From assembly GCF_003334335.1 (NCBI RefSeq), contig NZ_QOWQ01000038.1: 40,690 nt of DNA; one strand, written 5' to 3'. The notes under the pieces were generated by a model that was given only the letters and a program-made list of their open reading frames with translations, made no database searches and had not been told where the DNA came from. The DNA comes from Escherichia coli. Its GTDB lineage: Bacteria > Pseudomonadota > Gammaproteobacteria > Enterobacterales > Enterobacteriaceae. The position numbers and the translations under genes are program-made. This document shows positions 28,524-34,942 of the stretch, piece after piece (the first letter of the stretch is position 1; each line of letters starts with the position of its first letter).

Positions 28524-29212
28524 AGCAACTGAAAGCCGACGTGCTGGCGGCGAATCTGGCGCTTCCCGCTCACCATCTGGTGACGTTCACCTGGGGCAAT
28601 GTCAGCGCGGTAGACGAAACGCGGCAATGGATGGTAATCAAACCTTCCGGCGTCGAGTACGACGTGATGACCGCCGACGATATGGTGGTGGTTGAGATAG
28701 CCAGCGGTAAGGTGGTGGAAGGCAGCAAAAAACCCTCTTCCGATACACCAACGCATCTGGCGCTCTACCGTCGCTATGCCGAAATTGGCGGTATTGTGCA
28801 TACCCACTCGCGCCACGCCACCATCTGGTCACAGGCCGGGCTGGATCTCCCCGCCTGGGGCACCACCCACGCCGATTATTTTTACGGTGCCATCCCCTGC
28901 ACGCGACAGATGACCGCAGAGGAGATTAACGGCGAATATGAATATCAGACCGGCGAAGTGATCATTGAAACCTTCGAAGAACGTGGCAGGAGTCCGGCAC
29001 AAATCCCGGCGGTGCTGGTGCATTCTCACGGCCCGTTCGCATGGGGTAAAAACGCCGCCGATGCCGTGCATAACGCCGTAGTACTCGAAGAATGCGCCTA
29101 TATGGGTCTATTCTCGCGCCAGCTTGCGCCGCAGCTCCCTGCGATGCAAAACGAACTGCTGGATAAGCACTACCTGCGTAAGCATGGGGCCAATGCCTAT
29201 TACGGGCAGTAA
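28517..29212 (+). CDS. sgbE: L-ribulose-5-phosphate 4-epimerase (AraD/UlaF paralog)
   Basis: 231-aa class II aldolase/epimerase. Overlaps the sgbU stop by 7 nt. Confidence 0.93.
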
Positions 29213-29220
29213 TCCCTCAC

Positions 29221-29242
29221 GCCGGGGCTTCATCGCCCCGGC
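29221..29242 (+). terminator. Operon-end hairpin after sgbE
   Basis: Perfect 8-bp GC stem gccggggc-ttcatc-gccccggc, 9 nt after the sgbE stop. Not followed by a strong U-tract. Confidence 0.45.
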
Positions 29243-29558
29243 ACTACGAATTGATATGTTCCTTGCTGTAACGCCGCTTCCACGCTGCTGGCGTTAAACC
29301 AGTATGTTTCTGAAAAATCTGCCGGAAATAGCCAACGTCATTAAACCGTATTGCATGGAGCAGGCCGACAACGTCGAGTCACTGCATAACCTGTTGCTGC
29401 CCGCCGATGCGCCATTTACGACATTTGAAGGCAAGGGATTGTTCAGCCATAAGATCCTGATTCAGACGCCAGGTTCCCGGTATGAACAGAGCAATCCAGA
29501 GCAACAACCTTTGTGGCATTACGACGGAGCACCAGCCGCACCGACATCCACCGGTGAA

Positions 29559-30299
29559 TTAAAAACGCCAGCTCACCCCGGTGACAAAGGTAAAACTCTC
29601 ATTACGATCAATCATCGGGCTGTCGGTAATCTCTTCCGGCAGCTCGCTGTATCCTGCGCTCGCCATCAATACGACGTGCTCTCCTATCGGGTATTTTGCC
29701 GTCAGGCTGACATAGGGCACCCAGGCATCCTGCGCGGAATAACTTGCCAGACCGCTACGACGGGACTCACTCTCTGAAATGCCATAGTAATAGTCACTGA
29801 AATTCTCGTCATAATAGAGAACGCCCAGCGCAGGTGTCAGCGACAGACGACCTATCTGCATTTTGTGGAATACCGATAGCTCCCCCACCCAGCCGTTGCT
29901 GTTATCCAGAACGTCCGCAGCTGCAGAGGCTTTCACGGTTCCCCAACGCTCGTGGTGATACCAGGCAACCCCCGCCATAGCCGTACTATCACGCTTATCA
30001 AGCTGTTGCATGGCATAATCGTCATTATCGGTAGGGTCAAATTCCAGCGGCATCCAGGATGCGGTCAGGCTAAGTTCATTTTTTTCACTTTGCGACAGAA
30101 TAAAACCTAACGTGGTCTGACGAACATAAAAAGTATCACCTTCATAACTAATCAGCGGAATTGCCTTCGTATTTTCATTATAACCGCGATAAGGCGATTC
30201 ATTATAAGCCGCACCAGCACCAATGGATAATTCAGAAGCAGTTGCGCTTGCCATAAAAGGCAACGCAAATAACGCCACAATATTGCGATTAATTAACAT
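29559..30299 (-). CDS. yiaT: MipA/OmpV-family outer membrane protein
   Basis: 246 aa, signal peptide (MLINRNIVALFALPFMASA), beta-barrel-like alternating pattern, C-terminal aromatic residue (..SWRF). Confidence 0.88.
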   Translation of the reverse strand: MLINRNIVALFALPFMASATASELSIGAGAAYNESPYRGYNENTKAIPLISYEGDTFYVRQTTLGFILSQSEKNELSLTASWMPLEFDPTDNDDYAMQQLDKRDSTAMAGVAWYHHERWGTVKASAAADVLDNSNGWVGELSVFHKMQIGRLSLTPALGVLYYDENFSDYYYGISESESRRSGLASYSAQDAWVPYVSLTAKYPIGEHVVLMASAGYSELPEEITDSPMIDRNESFTFVTGVSWRF

Positions 30300-30422
30300 G
30301 TCCGGTATTCCATTTTAAAATAAGATAAAAAAGAGTCGGCATAATAATGCTTACAATTTCTCCGGTGCAAGATTCATATTTATATAGTAATATATAAAAT
30401 TATATATAATTGGGCTGTTGCG

Positions 30423-31397
30423 ATGACAAAATTACAACTTAAGTACCGGGAGTTAAAAATTATCTCGGTAATCGCTGCCAGTGAAAATATCAGCCATGCC
30501 GCGACTGTACTTGGCATCGCACAGGCCAACGTCAGCAAATATCTTGCTGATTTTGAATCAAAAGTGGGTTTAAAAGTCTTTGACCGAACCACCCGGCAGC
30601 TGATGCTCACACCTTTTGGCACCGCGCTGTTACCGTACATCAACGACATGCTGGACAGAAACGAGCAACTTAATAATTTTATTGCAGATTATAAGCATGA
30701 GAAACGTGGTCGGGTCACCATCTACGCCCCAACCGGCATAATTACCTATTTATCCAAACATGTAATCGATAAAATTAAAGATATCGGTGATATCACCTTA
30801 TCGCTAAAAACCTGCAATCTTGAGCGTAATGCCTTTTATGAAGGCGTCGAATTTCCTGATGATTGTGATGTTTTAATCAGCTACGCTCCACCAAAAGATG
30901 AATCGCTGGTTGCCAGTTTTATTACCCAATATGCCGTAACCGCTTATGCCAGCCAGCGCTATCTTGAGAAACATCCCATTAGCCGTCCTGACGAACTCGA
31001 ACATCACTCCTGTATTTTGATCGACTCGATGATGATCGACGACGCGAATATCTGGCGCTTCAACGTCGCCGGGAGTAAAGAGGTGCGGGATTATCGCGTG
31101 AAGGGAAATTACGTTTGCGACAACACGCAATCTGCGCTGGAGCTGGCACGAAATCACCTGGGGATTGTGTTTGCGCCAGACAAAAGTGTGCAGAGCGACC
31201 TGCAAGACGGCACGCTGGTGCCCTGCTTTCAGCAACCCTATGAATGGTGGCTGGATCTGGTGGCTATCTTCCGTAAACGGGAATACCAGCCCTGGCGGGT
31301 CCAGTATGTGCTGGATGAAATGCTGCGTGAAATTCGCCACCAGCTTGCTCAGTCGCAGCAACTGCGGCCTGAACAAGCGGCGGAAAGCGAAGATTAA
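30423..31397 (+). CDS. yiaU: LysR-type transcriptional regulator
   Basis: 324 aa, N-terminal LysR HTH ([28 protein letters not shown]). Divergent from yiaT. Stop codon overlaps the yiaV stop. Confidence 0.9.
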
Positions 31398-32530
31398 TGA
31401 TCGAGATAAAGGTAATGCACCCAGCTGTTCATGCGTAATAGCACTTTGCGCATCACCGAGACATGGCTGAAATGATCAGAGTAAACCGCCACCTGGGCGT
31501 AAATACCGTCTGGTAAAGCGCTCAAATCAGTGTGCTCATCCAGTTCAATGGTCGCGATAACGCCATCTGAACCCGGCGCTGTGTTTAACGTCTGTAAGGT
31601 GCCGGTCGACTGATAAGCTCCGCCGGGAACGGCTGGACTAATGGCTGCCAGCTTACCGCTGAATACCTTACCTGGCAGAGCATTAAACACCACTTCCGCA
31701 TCGTCGCCAGGAGCCAGTCGCAGCAAGGAGTTCTGACGGAACTGCGCCACGATTTGTCGTTTCTGATCGGGTATAAACACCATCACCGGACGTAGCGGCA
31801 GCGACGCGGCATAGGTACCCGGACGAATCAGTACCTGGGTCACATAACCATCGCTCGGCGCACGCACTATCGTCTGCTCAAGGTTATATTTTGCTTCCGC
31901 GAGCTGTGCTTTCAGGCTGGCGATTTGAGAATGTTCACCCAACACCAGGCTATCCAGCTGGCTCTGGATCTGTTTTTGTTCCGCCGCCGATGACTTCACG
32001 GAGGCTTCCTGCGCCAGATAATTTTGCCGCGCCACATCGATATCGCGTTCTGAAAACGGGTTTACTTTCGCCTGGCTGCCACGTGCGTAACGCTGATACT
32101 CTTTAGCGAATTTATCCCGCGTGGCCTTTGCCTGCTGAGTATTCGCCGCCATCTCATCTAACTCTGCGCCCAACGCCCGCTGTTTATGTTCTGCGGTAAC
32201 GATATCCGCCATCAGCCGATCCACCCGCGCCTGATAACGCGTCGGGTCCAGTCGAAATAGCACCTCACCTTTTTTAATCAGCGTATTTTTCTTATCCGTC
32301 ACTTCAATCACCACACCAGTCACCTGTGGGACAACAGGAATAGAAATAACCGCTTTTTGCGCTTTAAAGGTATACGGATGGTTATAGTTCATTAACAGAA
32401 TTAGACCGCTGACAATAAATATTCCACCCAGGGCCGCTGTGGGAATGGTCCATTTATTTACGGGAATTTTGAAGATCTTAAACATTGCCCATGCAAAAGC
32501 CACATAGGTCAAAATAATCAGTAAATCCAT
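31394..32530 (-). CDS. yiaV: HlyD/EmrA-family membrane fusion (periplasmic adaptor) protein
   Basis: 378 aa: N-terminal TM helix, long coiled-coil segment ([32 protein letters not shown]...), C-terminal beta domain. Confidence 0.9.
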
Positions 32531-32535
32531 AAGTA

Positions 32536-32859
32536 TTACTCGGCAGAAGAGGATTTGATGTCGGCGAGCTGTTTCTCCAGCCCGGCAATGCGCTGTTGCA
32601 GTTGCATAACGGATGAATCATGGCTTTGCATTCCCCATCCCCGCTCCGGGCGGTAAAGCGTGGCCCAAATCCACAAAAACGGCCAGATAACATGTAACGT
32701 AAAAAGACTCACCCAACCAGCAACATGAATGGCGTCGGCATGAGGATGATTACGTTTTTTGGCAATCAGGTAGGGAATATCATGTAAAATAATGATCCCA
32801 TAGAAGATCACCAGAAATACAAAAATAAGCACTCCCAGTGCAAAATAGTCCAGGAACAT
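32536..32859 (-). CDS. yiaW: Small inner membrane protein (DUF3302), YiaW
   Basis: ORF-track frame 32536..32889. Start placed at the internal ATG ([10 protein letters not shown]...) preceded by a GAGGG Shine-Dalgarno, giving 107 aa. Lies 5 nt upstream of yiaV. Confidence 0.8.
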
Positions 32860-33041
32860 ATTTCCCTCAAAGAATATAAAAAAGAACAATTAACGCATAT
32901 TATGAAATGCCATGATGCAGTGCAATTTCCTTATTTATATAACGACATATTGTTTTTTATATACTTTCTTAAATGTGCTGTCTGGTTTTTCAACAGGACG
33001 AGGTTTATCATATTGAAATAGTGGAACTATTGGCCAAACTA

Positions 33042-33185
33042 ATGAATAACTCCAGTAAAACATCCACAGTACAGATTAAGCGTATTAAACCTTCAATTAT
33101 CTACCGTTTATTGCTGATTGGCCTCGGATCACCAATGGTGATTTACGGCCTGGTTCGCCCGCTCACCATCGAAACGCGAGATTAA
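33042..33185 (+). other. Candidate small ORF (47 aa from ATG 33042, 70 aa from ATG 32973) with one hydrophobic helix; unverified
   Basis: MNNSSKTSTVQIKRIKPSIIYRLLLIGLGSPMVIYGLVRPLTIETRD. No convincing Shine-Dalgarno upstream of any in-frame start. Confidence 0.2.
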
Positions 33186-33290
33186 ACTCCTGACAAAACA
33201 CGCCCCAGAAACGTACTTCTGTTGGCGTAGTCTGGGTTATTGCGCACGTAGGTTTAAAACGTAAATTGTAACAACGTGCGCTTTGTTTAT

Positions 33291-33372
33291 GCCGGATGCG
33301 GCGTGTACGCCTTATCCGGCCTACGGTCAGGTTCCCGTAGGCATGATAAGACGCGTAAGCGTCGCATCAGGC
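33291..33372. repeat. BIME: two inverted REP elements downstream of aldB
   Basis: gccggatgcggcgtgtacgccttatccggcctac (33291-33324) and gtaggcatgataagacgcgtaagcgtcgcatcaggc (33337-33372). Confidence 0.65.
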
Positions 33373-33403
33373 AATGAATACCCAATGCGACCAGCTTCTT
33401 ATA

Positions 33404-34942
33404 TCAGAACAGCCCCAACGGTTTATCCGAGTAGCTCACCAGCAGGCACTTGGTTTGCTGGTAATGCTCCAGCATCATCTTGTGGGTTTCGCGACCGATA
33501 CCTGATTGTTTGTAGCCACCAAACGCCGCATGTGCCGGGTAAGCGTGATAACAGTTGGTCCACACGCGCCCAGCCTGTATGCCGCGCCCCATCTTATAGG
33601 CCAGATTACCGTTGCGGCTCCAGACGCCCGCGCCCAGGCCATATTGCGTATCGTTCGCCAGCTCCAGCGCTTCTTCCATCGTTTTGAAGGTGGTCACCGC
33701 CAGCACCGGGCCAAAAATCTCCTCCTGGAACACCCGCATATTGTTCTGACCAAACAGAATCGTCGGTTCGAGGTAGTAGCCGTCTTTCAGTTCACCTTCC
33801 AGCAGCTTGCGCCGCCCGCCTGTGAGCACGTCAGCGCCCTCTTTTTTACCGATATCAATGTAGTTGAGGATGGTTTCCAGTTGCCCGTGAGAAACCTGCG
33901 CGCCCATTTGCGTCACGCTGTCGAGCGGGTTACCGCTACGAATGCTTTCGACACGGCGGATGGCGCGTTCCATAAAGCGTTCGTAGATAGATTCCTGCAC
34001 TAAAGCACGACTCGGACAGGTGCAAACTTCGCCCTGGTTAAAGGCAAACAGTGCAAAGCCTTCCAGCGCTTTATCGAAAAAGGCATCTTCTTCATCCATC
34101 ACATCAGCAAAGAAGATATTTGGCGACTTACCGCCCAACTCCAGCGTCACCGGAATAATGTTTTGCGTTGCGTATTGCATAATTTGTTGGCCCACTTCCG
34201 TTGAGCCGGTAAACGCCACTTTGGCGATGCGTTTCGAGGTCGCCAGATATTCGCCAATTACCCCACCTGCGCCATTGACCACGTTCACCACGCCCGGCGG
34301 CAGTAAATCACCGACAATTTCCATTAGCAGCAGTACAGAAAGCGGGGTAAGACGTGCGGGTTTCAGCACCACACAGTTGCCCGCCGCCAGCGCGGGAGCC
34401 ATTTTCCAGCTCGCCATCAGCAGCGGGAAGTTCCACGGGATAATCTGCCCCACCACGCCTAACGGTTCATGGAAATGATAGGCCACGGTTTCGCTATCAA
34501 CTTCACTGATCCCACCTTCCTGCGCCCGAATACACGAGGCGAAATAGCGGAAATGGTCAATCGCCAGCGGTACATCCGCAGCACTGGTTTCGCGAATGGG
34601 TTTGCCGTTATCCCAGGTTTCAGCTGTCGCTAACAGCTCGAGGTTTTGTTCCATTCGATCGGCAATCTTAAACAGAATCGCCGCACGATCCTGCACCGAG
34701 GTGTGCGCCCATTTATCTTTCACTTTGTGCGCAGCATCCAGCGCCAGATCGATGTCTCGTTTGCCCGAAGACGCCACTTCGCACAGCAGCTGCCCGGTCA
34801 CCGGCGTCAGATTCTGGTAATACTCGCCGTCGGCAGGGGCTACCCATTCGCCGCCAATAAAGTTGTCATAGCGGGCTTTTAACTTGAGGGGGAAACCATA
34901 CTCGCCGGGCTTAATCTGTGCTGAAGGGGGATTATTGGTCAT
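33404..34942 (-). CDS. aldB: Aldehyde dehydrogenase B (NADP-dependent)
   Basis: ORF-track frame 33404..35080. Start placed at the ATG giving [22 protein letters not shown]... (512 aa). Confidence 0.93.

Follow-up and report, generated by a model that had tools for sequence, protein, structure and literature searches.

Background

What does a periplasmic adaptor do at a place where no pump is encoded with it, and which of the genes beside it belong to its system? The question is raised by four adjacent genes, yiaT, yiaU, yiaV and yiaW, in a window of 40,690 nucleotides of Escherichia coli DNA (RefSeq assembly GCF_003334335.1, contig NZ_QOWQ01000038.1; the window is this whole stretch, and positions below are counted in it). 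Tripartite envelope-spanning systems take their classification from the pump in the inner membrane (RND, ABC, MFS or FUSC/PET), and efflux inventories have long listed YiaV and its paralogue YibH as unexplained "orphan" adaptors; in TCDB, YiaV is an uncharacterised membrane fusion protein (PMC10971958). We report here that the DUF3302 protein YiaW and the adaptor YiaV belong to families linked as a pair, and that yiaWV, together with its paralogue yibIH, looks like a pump-less variant of a tripartite system that we did not find described in the searchable literature.

An initial annotation of the window had taken the four genes for a single envelope-spanning module of undescribed function. Its gene identities (a MipA-type yiaT, a LysR yiaU, a DUF3302 yiaW and an EmrA-class yiaV) were confirmed at the claimed places by open reading frames, Pfam and NCBIfam matches and RefSeq. 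Its range of 29559-32889 holds at the start and not at the end, as yiaW begins at the ATG at 32859 and 32889 is an in-frame TTG upstream of it. That ATG has GAGGG (Shine-Dalgarno) ahead, matches the annotated start and, Bacteroidota-type loci excepted, is where homologues start with an aligned M-[FV]-L-[DN]-Y. As claimed, yiaW and yiaV form a two-gene operon: they are 5 nt apart and are listed as operon 'yiaWV' in a genomic SELEX (systematic evolution of ligands by exponential enrichment) study (PMC3946193). In agreement with the initial annotation, no description of yiaWV function was found in the searchable literature, nor any paper on DUF3302 function. The features are as follows.

29559-30299, minus strand: yiaT, 246 aa, MipA/OmpV-family outer-membrane protein
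30300-30422: yiaT/yiaU divergent promoter spacer, AT-rich, GC about 0.39, with promoter-like hexamers
30423-31397, plus strand: yiaU (proposed name lpsR), 324 aa, LysR-type regulator
31394-31397: TTAA common to the convergent yiaU and yiaV stop codons, read from the sequence
31394-32530, minus strand: yiaV, 378 aa, EmrA-class periplasmic adaptor (membrane fusion protein)
32381-32530, minus strand: YiaV residues 1-50, two-helix membrane hairpin (helices 2-19 and 28-50) by AlphaFold2 secondary structure
31409-31468, minus strand: YiaV residues 355-374, conserved C-terminal helix VxxxRKxLLRMxSW, by AlphaFold2
32536-32859, minus strand: yiaW, 107 aa, DUF3302 small inner-membrane protein
32860-33040, minus strand: yiaWV promoter region, AT-rich, GC about 0.41

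Results

Linkage of DUF3302 and the adaptor

The four proteins were mapped onto 71 Enterobacterales loci, with one genome per species. Among the first 77 loci, every DUF3302 gene with readable downstream sequence (83/83) was followed within about 2-40 nt by a YiaV-type adaptor gene, and the Enterobacterales adaptors paired in this way were of the 378-aa YiaV type. The pairing was also found in Pseudoalteromonas, Phyllobacterium, Aeromonas, Labrys, a metagenome-assembled genome of Pseudomonadota, Eleftheria and Cupriavidus, and it held at all of the roughly 90 places with readable downstream sequence, in at least three phyla. By this strict gene linkage, DUF3302 and the YiaV-type adaptor are an obligate pair.

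The neighbourhood comparison across Enterobacterales showed no pump linked to the pair elsewhere. The only recurrent transporter neighbours were mtlA and lldP, which recur because of synteny, and RND, MFS or EmrAB-like genes appeared sporadically, at single Enterobacterales loci and on the opposite strand. The window itself bears out the statement that a pump in cis is lacking: no efflux-type transporter was found in the 12 kb to each side of yiaTUVW, where the sole transporter is the yiaMNO TRAP uptake system.

Outside Enterobacterales, the bare two-gene cassette was seen in six lineages (Pseudoalteromonas, Phyllobacterium, Aeromonas, Labrys, Ferrimonas and the Pseudomonadota metagenome-assembled genome). 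A third gene was present in the same operon, with gaps of 0-15 nt, at 7 of the 14 loci, and it was always an outer-membrane factor (OEP/TolC/NodT); an inner-membrane transporter was found within the operon at none of the 14. The outer-membrane factor came before DUF3302 and the adaptor at L082, L083 (Reichenbachiella, Bacteroidota) and L085, the last of which is flanked by opposite-strand genes on both sides, and after them at L084, L091, L095 (Eleftheria terrae) and L097 (Cupriavidus metallidurans CH34). Four of these factors were typed against NCBIfam; the NodT efflux subfamily was the best match for all of them, and two of the four scored above its cutoff. At L084, a complete FUSC-OEP-DUF1656-adaptor operon adjoins the DUF3302-adaptor-OEP operon. 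This side-by-side arrangement suggests that the DUF3302 system is a parallel, pump-less design and not a remnant or decayed copy. A cation/proton antiporter was considered as a hidden partner and rejected, as the Na_H_Exchanger genes abutting the L084 and L092 cassettes are unrelated (CPA1-like and CPA2); having no mutual similarity, they are taken as coincidence.

Several other neighbours recur at low frequency. Near distant cassettes we noted genes for a patatin-like phospholipase (L093, L095), YSC84/SYLF (L094, L095), LolA-like DUF2092 (L084, L095) and Mla-like MlaE/MlaD (L091, L093), and PqiB near those of Pantoea (L037, L057); small K+ channels of the Ion_trans_2 type (L084, L093, L094) and MscS channels (L088, L096) recur as well. 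These lipid, envelope and channel counts are too small to interpret. A gene for a periplasmic DUF1471 protein of the YahO type (115.5 bits, cutoff 90) adjoins the pair, in varying orientation, at L003, L004, L026, L027, L037, L068 and L073, in Erwinia, Biostraticola, Rahnella, Pantoea and one Citrobacter; another DUF1471 gene of E. coli, yhcN, lies two genes downstream of aaeXAB. A gene for a 222-aa lipoprotein directly upstream of the pair is common to L080 and Biostraticola.

Anatomy of YiaW and YiaV

YiaW matches Pfam DUF3302 (PF11742) with E 2.7e-43, residues 3-78 aligning to model positions 1-76 of 77, and searches of NCBIfam, PDB and PADLOC with it gave no match. A role in anti-phage defence was set aside, PADLOC having matched none of the four proteins. 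The DUF3302 family comprises 881 clusters at 50% identity (E <=0.001) and is unusually conserved, with 55-75% identity among the representatives of the 50% clusters. YiaW has two transmembrane helices, a conserved turn of 20 residues between them and a variable, coiled-coil-like C-terminal tail. Residues P39, A43, S51, W59, P60 and W65 are invariant in the DUF3302 alignment, and D27, P29, R36, H38 and D42 are nearly so. The positive-inside rule would place the turn in the cytoplasm and both termini in the periplasm.

YiaV matches HlyD/CusB_dom_1 and HlyD_D23 of Pfam. Its NCBIfam scores were 112.2 for MdtN (cutoff 376), 112 for the EmrA/EmrK subfamily (390.8), 63.3 for AaeA (400) and 52.5 for EmrA (563); every score is far under the curated cutoff, and YiaV was not assigned to EmrA, MdtN or AaeA as a named equivalog. 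In the AlphaFold2 model (mean predicted local distance difference test, pLDDT, 80.7) two N-terminal helices (2-19 and 28-50) are followed by the strands of a lipoyl domain (53-94), an alpha-helical hairpin (97-151 and 161-218, about 55 residues per helix), a beta-barrel (221-350) and a C-terminal helix (355-374). The model thus has the lipoyl domain, alpha-helical hairpin and beta-barrel of an adaptor, and is without a membrane-proximal domain. Its best Foldseek match was EmrA within EmrAB-TolC (8zal/8zar, E 3e-21, TM-score 0.62-0.68), and MacA, AcrA and MexA were matched as well.

The two membrane helices of YiaV are joined by a cytoplasmic loop of 11 residues, and a boundary motif, NYNHPYT, follows the membrane hairpin. 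Across 32 adaptors, from Enterobacterales to Bacteroidota, Y9, F17, W27, T31, L34, G36, M47, Y49, H51 and P52 are invariant in the membrane hairpin, and R361, L364, R366, M367 and W370 in the C-terminal helix. Regional conservation, computed among the nine most divergent adaptor sequences, was 0.86 for NYNHPYT, 0.83 for the cytoplasmic loop, 0.72 for the second transmembrane helix and 0.68 for the C-terminal helix, against 0.55 for the whole protein and 0.38 for the alpha-hairpin; the latter is also about 60 residues shorter in Bacteroidota-type adaptors. Judged by sequence conservation, the constrained part of YiaV is its membrane end and not the end that faces the outer membrane. The C-terminal helix was also considered as amphipathic. 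Its hydrophobic moment of 1.12, compared with 0.66 +/- 0.33 in shuffles, was reached by 10% of the shuffles and is not significant, so that we call the helix conserved only.

The window carries a T instead of a G at 31428 relative to the MG1655-derived NZ_CP032667.1, which changes YiaV T369 to N inside this helix; position 369 is variable among homologues (T, K, Q, R, G).

Relatives and closest known systems

The closest relative of yiaWV is its direct paralogue yibI-yibH, which lies 18 kb away in K-12 and has the same two-gene layout without a pump. YiaW and YibI are 75% and YiaV and YibH 77% identical, with equal lengths, and yibH, too, is induced at the transition to stationary phase (PMC2241611). 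The two copies differ in that yibIH sits at the ancestral mtlA/yibF position and is widespread in Enterobacteriaceae, whereas the yia copy is a separate clade that is confined to three genera and missing from about 30% of complete E. coli genomes. In a neighbour-joining tree the yia adaptors form one clade outside the group of yibH and the other Enterobacterales, and on this ground we rejected yiaV as a recent in-genus duplicate of yibH. The yia clade may stem from an old duplication with acceleration, or from transfer. At L072 and L073 (Citrobacter) and L080 (Serratia quinivorans) we saw a third DUF3302-adaptor copy, beside which lies a LysR gene of its own (34-36% identical to YiaU).

Among more distant adaptors from a plasmid collection, those with at least 36% identity were paired with DUF3302 wherever annotation or a DUF3302 match was available. 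The tier of 25-30% identity is mixed: adaptors of Agrobacterium and of Klebsiella plasmids pair with DUF2955, a FUSC_2-like membrane protein, and the divergent Eleftheria and Cupriavidus adaptors are still paired with DUF3302. The existence of a sister subfamily with DUF2955 connects the YiaV lineage with that side of the adaptor tree where AaeA and MdtN (FUSC/PET) belong. The sister layout, seen at L096 4581-7023 (Agrobacterium pAt) and in the Klebsiella plasmids H114 and H121, consists of a 94-aa hypothetical protein (not DUF3302), an adaptor about 29% identical to YiaV and a 340-aa DUF2955 protein. The small proteins upstream of the sister adaptors of Ruegeria and Agrobacterium were considered as DUF3302 members and found not to be.

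Compared with EmrAB-TolC, YiaV has the EmrA-type build of an N-terminal inner-membrane anchor, lipoyl domain, long hairpin and beta-barrel, and EmrA is its best structural match, the EmrA and MdtN subfamilies being its best sequence matches. However, YiaV is only about 20% identical to EmrA (112 bits against cutoffs of 376-391), has two N-terminal transmembrane helices instead of one plus the extra conserved C-terminal helix, and goes with an obligate two-helix DUF3302 partner in place of an EmrB-like pump.

The resemblance to aaeR-aaeXAB pointed out in the initial annotation holds loosely for the layout. In aaeXAB and mdtNOP, as here, the first gene of the operon codes for a small protein of two transmembrane helices and the next for a membrane-anchored adaptor, and a LysR gene is close by; the DUF2955 pairing of the sister adaptors and the adjoining operons of both types at L084 point the same way. 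The resemblance does not extend to homology or to regulation. YiaW was rejected as an AaeX/DUF1656 homologue (hhalign of the DUF3302 alignment against AaeX gave a probability of 0.05%), YiaV is 21% identical to AaeA and YiaU 21% identical to AaeR. The FUSC/PET pump is absent, yiaV being followed by the convergent yiaU, and yiaU is divergent from yiaT, its known target, while yiaWV is not among its reported targets.

Synteny of the four genes

Escherichia, Citrobacter and Pseudocitrobacter keep one fixed gene order, aldB-yiaW-yiaV-yiaU-yiaT. Among the 83 DUF3302-adaptor pairs of the first 77 loci, yiaU-yiaT adjoin only those of this yia clade; yiaWV thus shows no special co-occurrence with yiaT/yiaU, an outcome that the initial annotation had itself named as refuting its reading. 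In Enterobacter, Leclercia and Huaxiibacter the order is mtlA-yibI-yibH-yibF-selAB-aldB-yiaU-yiaT, with yiaU-yiaT adjoining aldB without an adjacent yiaWV. In Erwinia, Yersinia, Serratia, Rahnella, Pantoea, Buttiauxella and others, the DUF3302-adaptor pair is found by itself in unrelated surroundings. Within E. coli, the yiaTUVW block was present at a coverage of at least 80% in 3723 of 5426 complete genomes and missing from about 30%; the absence can be of the whole block, with AraC-MFS-GH127 standing in its place. On synteny, then, yiaU-yiaT and yiaW-yiaV appear as two functionally separate units, the yiaW-yiaV cassette having come to lie beside yiaU-yiaT in the Escherichia/Citrobacter/Pseudocitrobacter lineage alone. 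Treating yiaU-yiaT as independent guards against a misleading "operon-like" annotation of the four genes.

The two units meet at their stop codons. As initially described, the stops share the TTAA at 31394-31397, which can be read directly from the sequence (yiaU TAA at 31395-31397, yiaV TAA at 31394-31396 on the minus strand; 4 nt of overlap between the reading frames). The claim that the convergent transcripts overlap is also upheld: the 4-nt overlap leaves no room for a terminator, and yiaU-yiaV is listed as a convergent excludon by the ExcludonFinder, based on RNA sequencing (PMC12288877). Escherichia species, C. amalonaticus and Pseudocitrobacter have a spacing of -4 nt, three Citrobacter have one of -7 nt, and the C. 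freundii complex has a gap of 16-48 nt, with no overlap. Therefore it is the close convergence that is conserved and not the TTAA itself.

The yiaU-yiaT unit is stand-alone, with an ordinary LysR regulator and a divergent target. YiaT belongs with the MipA (MltA-interacting protein)/OmpV family in that it matches Pfam MipA over the full length (E 4.9e-52, model positions 1-221 of 221), and it differs in falling below the equivalog cutoff of Vibrio OmpV (NCBIfam OmpV, 94.6 bits against 400). No functional tie of YiaT to the adaptor emerged. YiaU gave full-length alignments to many LysR models of NCBIfam, every one below its equivalog cutoff, and its Citrobacter orthologue has PF00126 and PF03466 (HTH_1 and LysR substrate-binding), as a LysR-type protein does. 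YiaU has been studied by ChIP-exo (immunoprecipitation of chromatin followed by exonuclease digestion) and RNA sequencing: it represses yiaT, is reported as an activator of the waa operon, and in a yiaU deletion yiaT rises by 2.8 log2 and waa falls, and the name LpsR was proposed. The reported targets are yiaT, waa and adeP, and not yiaWV (PMC9068703). Genomic SELEX assigned to the yiaT/yiaU spacer an H-NS site and constitutive sigma-70 promoters facing both ways (PMC3946193).

Expression and phenotypes

The same SELEX study reports a constitutive sigma-70 promoter, CAGACA-17-TATAAA, with an H-NS site for yiaWV, and a constitutive sigma-70 promoter with an H-NS site upstream of the 'yibIH' operon (PMC3946193). 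In O157:H7, yiaW, yibH and aldB are all expressed more strongly as cells enter stationary phase (PMC2241611). Of six macrophage-evolved lines, three acquired IS1 insertions in yiaW in parallel, and these were followed by insertions in potA/potD (PMC3861542). A yiaW deletion is reported, in work cited in PMC12844161, to raise Ca2+-mediated transformation efficiency, and a yibI mutant of UTI89 competed poorly in urine (competitive index 0.33) and adhered less (PMC5404293).

Discussion

A proposed pump-less conduit and its rivals

Strict DUF3302-adaptor linkage, co-encoded outer-membrane factors, the lack of a linked pump, strongest conservation in the membrane parts and an EmrA-like model together lead us to a tentative reading, to which we give somewhat less than an even chance: DUF3302 and the membrane domain of the adaptor are the inner-membrane component of a pump-less, TolC-dependent conduit. 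YiaV would oligomerise into a periplasmic tube (a hexamer, by analogy with other adaptors) and dock on a TolC-type factor, which would be the TolC encoded elsewhere in E. coli and the same-operon NodT-family factor in Burkholderiales, Bacteroidota-type and other lineages. The inner-membrane end would be built from the two-helix membrane hairpin and C-terminal helix of YiaV together with YiaW, with four transmembrane helices per YiaW-YiaV protomer pair, and would replace the MFS, ABC, RND or FUSC pump. The His/Asp/Arg cluster of the YiaW turn and NYNHPYT of YiaV are candidate sites of gating or proton coupling. Through such a conduit a small molecule, perhaps lipid- or envelope-derived, might leave the inner membrane or periplasm by the outer-membrane duct; this export or venting would fall in stationary phase, with H-NS-associated expression, and the convergent overlap with yiaU may add transcriptional interference. 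We can also imagine, with more doubt than belief, that DUF3302 and the YiaV-type adaptor, with or without a TolC/NodT factor, make up a distinct trans-envelope class, a gated or proton-coupled ring of the two-helix subunit and the adaptor's hairpin and C-terminal helix that belongs to no known transporter superfamily and of which E. coli has two copies, yiaWV and yibIH. If true, this would be a minimal design without a recognisable transporter or ATPase, raising the questions of gating, power and cargo, and four uncharacterised genes of E. coli would gain a role, as would a family reaching from Bacteroidota-type lineages to Proteobacteria.

Several points weigh against the conduit. To our knowledge every characterised adaptor works with a dedicated pump, and the pump of YiaV might be encoded elsewhere. 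The contact of YiaW with YiaV, the docking of YiaV on TolC and transport itself are inferred, and an AlphaFold2 prediction of a YiaW-GS30-YiaV fusion with a paired alignment gave no support for specific packing (mean pLDDT 73.8, predicted TM-score 0.48; YiaW pLDDT 40-76; the YiaV hairpin less confident than in YiaV alone). The distant loci sampled are few (14) and were not chosen at random, and at one of them, L083, the OEP gene has an FtsX/MacB-type permease gene about 0.8 kb upstream in the same orientation, with another gene intervening and without an ATPase. The phenotypes are weak: phagosome maturation was unchanged when yiaW alone carried an insertion (PMC5495878), and yibH serves as a neutral integration site (PMC5852967).

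The main rival to the conduit is an unlinked pump, that is, an ordinary adaptor with a small accessory subunit, AcrZ- or AaeX-like, serving a pump encoded elsewhere and using TolC as the exit duct. Presumably the candidates in E. coli would be the adaptor-less FUSC/PET proteins YccS, YhfK and YeeA, or an MFS pump. Such an arrangement would fit the nearest named relatives, MdtN, EmrA and AaeA, all of which are pump partners, as well as the fold match to EmrA of EmrAB-TolC and the FUSC-like DUF2955 co-encoded with the sister adaptors (about 29% identity), and the use of TolC in trans is routine in E. coli. Adaptor and pump, however, are nearly always co-encoded, and yet none is linked at any of the roughly 90 places, OEP-linked loci included. 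In addition, the membrane hairpin, the C-terminal helix and DUF3302 are conserved above the periplasmic domains, which suggests a functional core and not an anchor, and we regard the unlinked pump as rather unlikely. Less probable still is a non-transport role, in which the pair, anchored in the inner membrane, would act in the periplasm as a scaffold or sensor, for example in envelope spacing, stress sensing or lipid homeostasis, and linkage to outer-membrane factors would reflect tethering. The loosely envelope-related phenotypes (transformation on yiaW deletion as cited in PMC12844161, urine fitness and adhesion with yibI, and the yiaW IS1 insertions) and the patatin, YSC84, DUF2092, Mla-like, PqiB and YahO-like neighbours agree with it; but the fold and the partnership with an outer-membrane factor are typical of export machines, and the neighbour counts are 2 each, with L095 alone feeding three of them.

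The four-gene module of the initial annotation, with the YiaT barrel as outer-membrane partner of YiaV and YiaU regulating the set, we consider very improbable. The shared order and orientation in three genera, the joint loss in some E. coli and the overlapping yiaU and yiaV transcripts would all suit a module. The adjacency, though, occurs in only one clade, with yiaU-yiaT found without an adjacent yiaWV in Enterobacter, Leclercia and Huaxiibacter and yiaWV-type pairs without yiaUT everywhere else; the outer-membrane partners co-encoded elsewhere are TolC/NodT-type and never a MipA barrel; and the main text of the YiaU study (PMC9068703) names neither yiaV nor yiaW. The module is thus largely refuted by synteny, in favour of two separate units.

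Other features of the window

The window matches E. coli K-12. A 3.8-kb query covering the locus had one mismatch to K-12 records, whose RefSeq annotation gives the identical four genes, and in 23.4 kb (17300-40690) the window differs from NZ_CP032667.1 by 11 single bases. On one side the locus is bordered by the yiaK-S/sgb sugar-acid genes, and on the other by aldB, yiaY and selAB. Nothing stood out in the GC profile except the AT-rich promoter spacers.

Between sgbE/araD and yiaT lie an AraC-family pseudogene fragment (29244-29345, minus strand) and a GH127 fragment (29349-29537, plus strand). They are leftovers of the AraC-MFS-GH127 cluster; other E. coli have this cluster intact, in some cases without any yiaTUVW.

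On the other side, 32973-33185 (plus strand) is a 70-aa reading frame that represents the truncated 5' part of a gene for a small two-helix membrane protein; in RefSeq, 33042-33185 is given as a hypothetical protein, and Pfam and NCBIfam searches gave no match for the family. The intact gene (103-127 aa) and yiaW are divergent in Escherichia sp. E1V33, E. whittamii and Citrobacter; in Pseudocitrobacter and Klebsiella the gene is placed elsewhere in the region.

An Rfam scan of 29000-33600 gave only sub-threshold naRNA4/REP-like matches, all outside genes. Three overlapping naRNA4 matches of this kind (33-40 bits against a gathering score of 59.5, on both strands) fall at 33241-33414, where the yiaW promoter region is behind and the end of aldB still ahead, and we take them tentatively to be a cluster of REP/BIME-type (repetitive extragenic palindrome/bacterial interspersed mosaic element) repeats.

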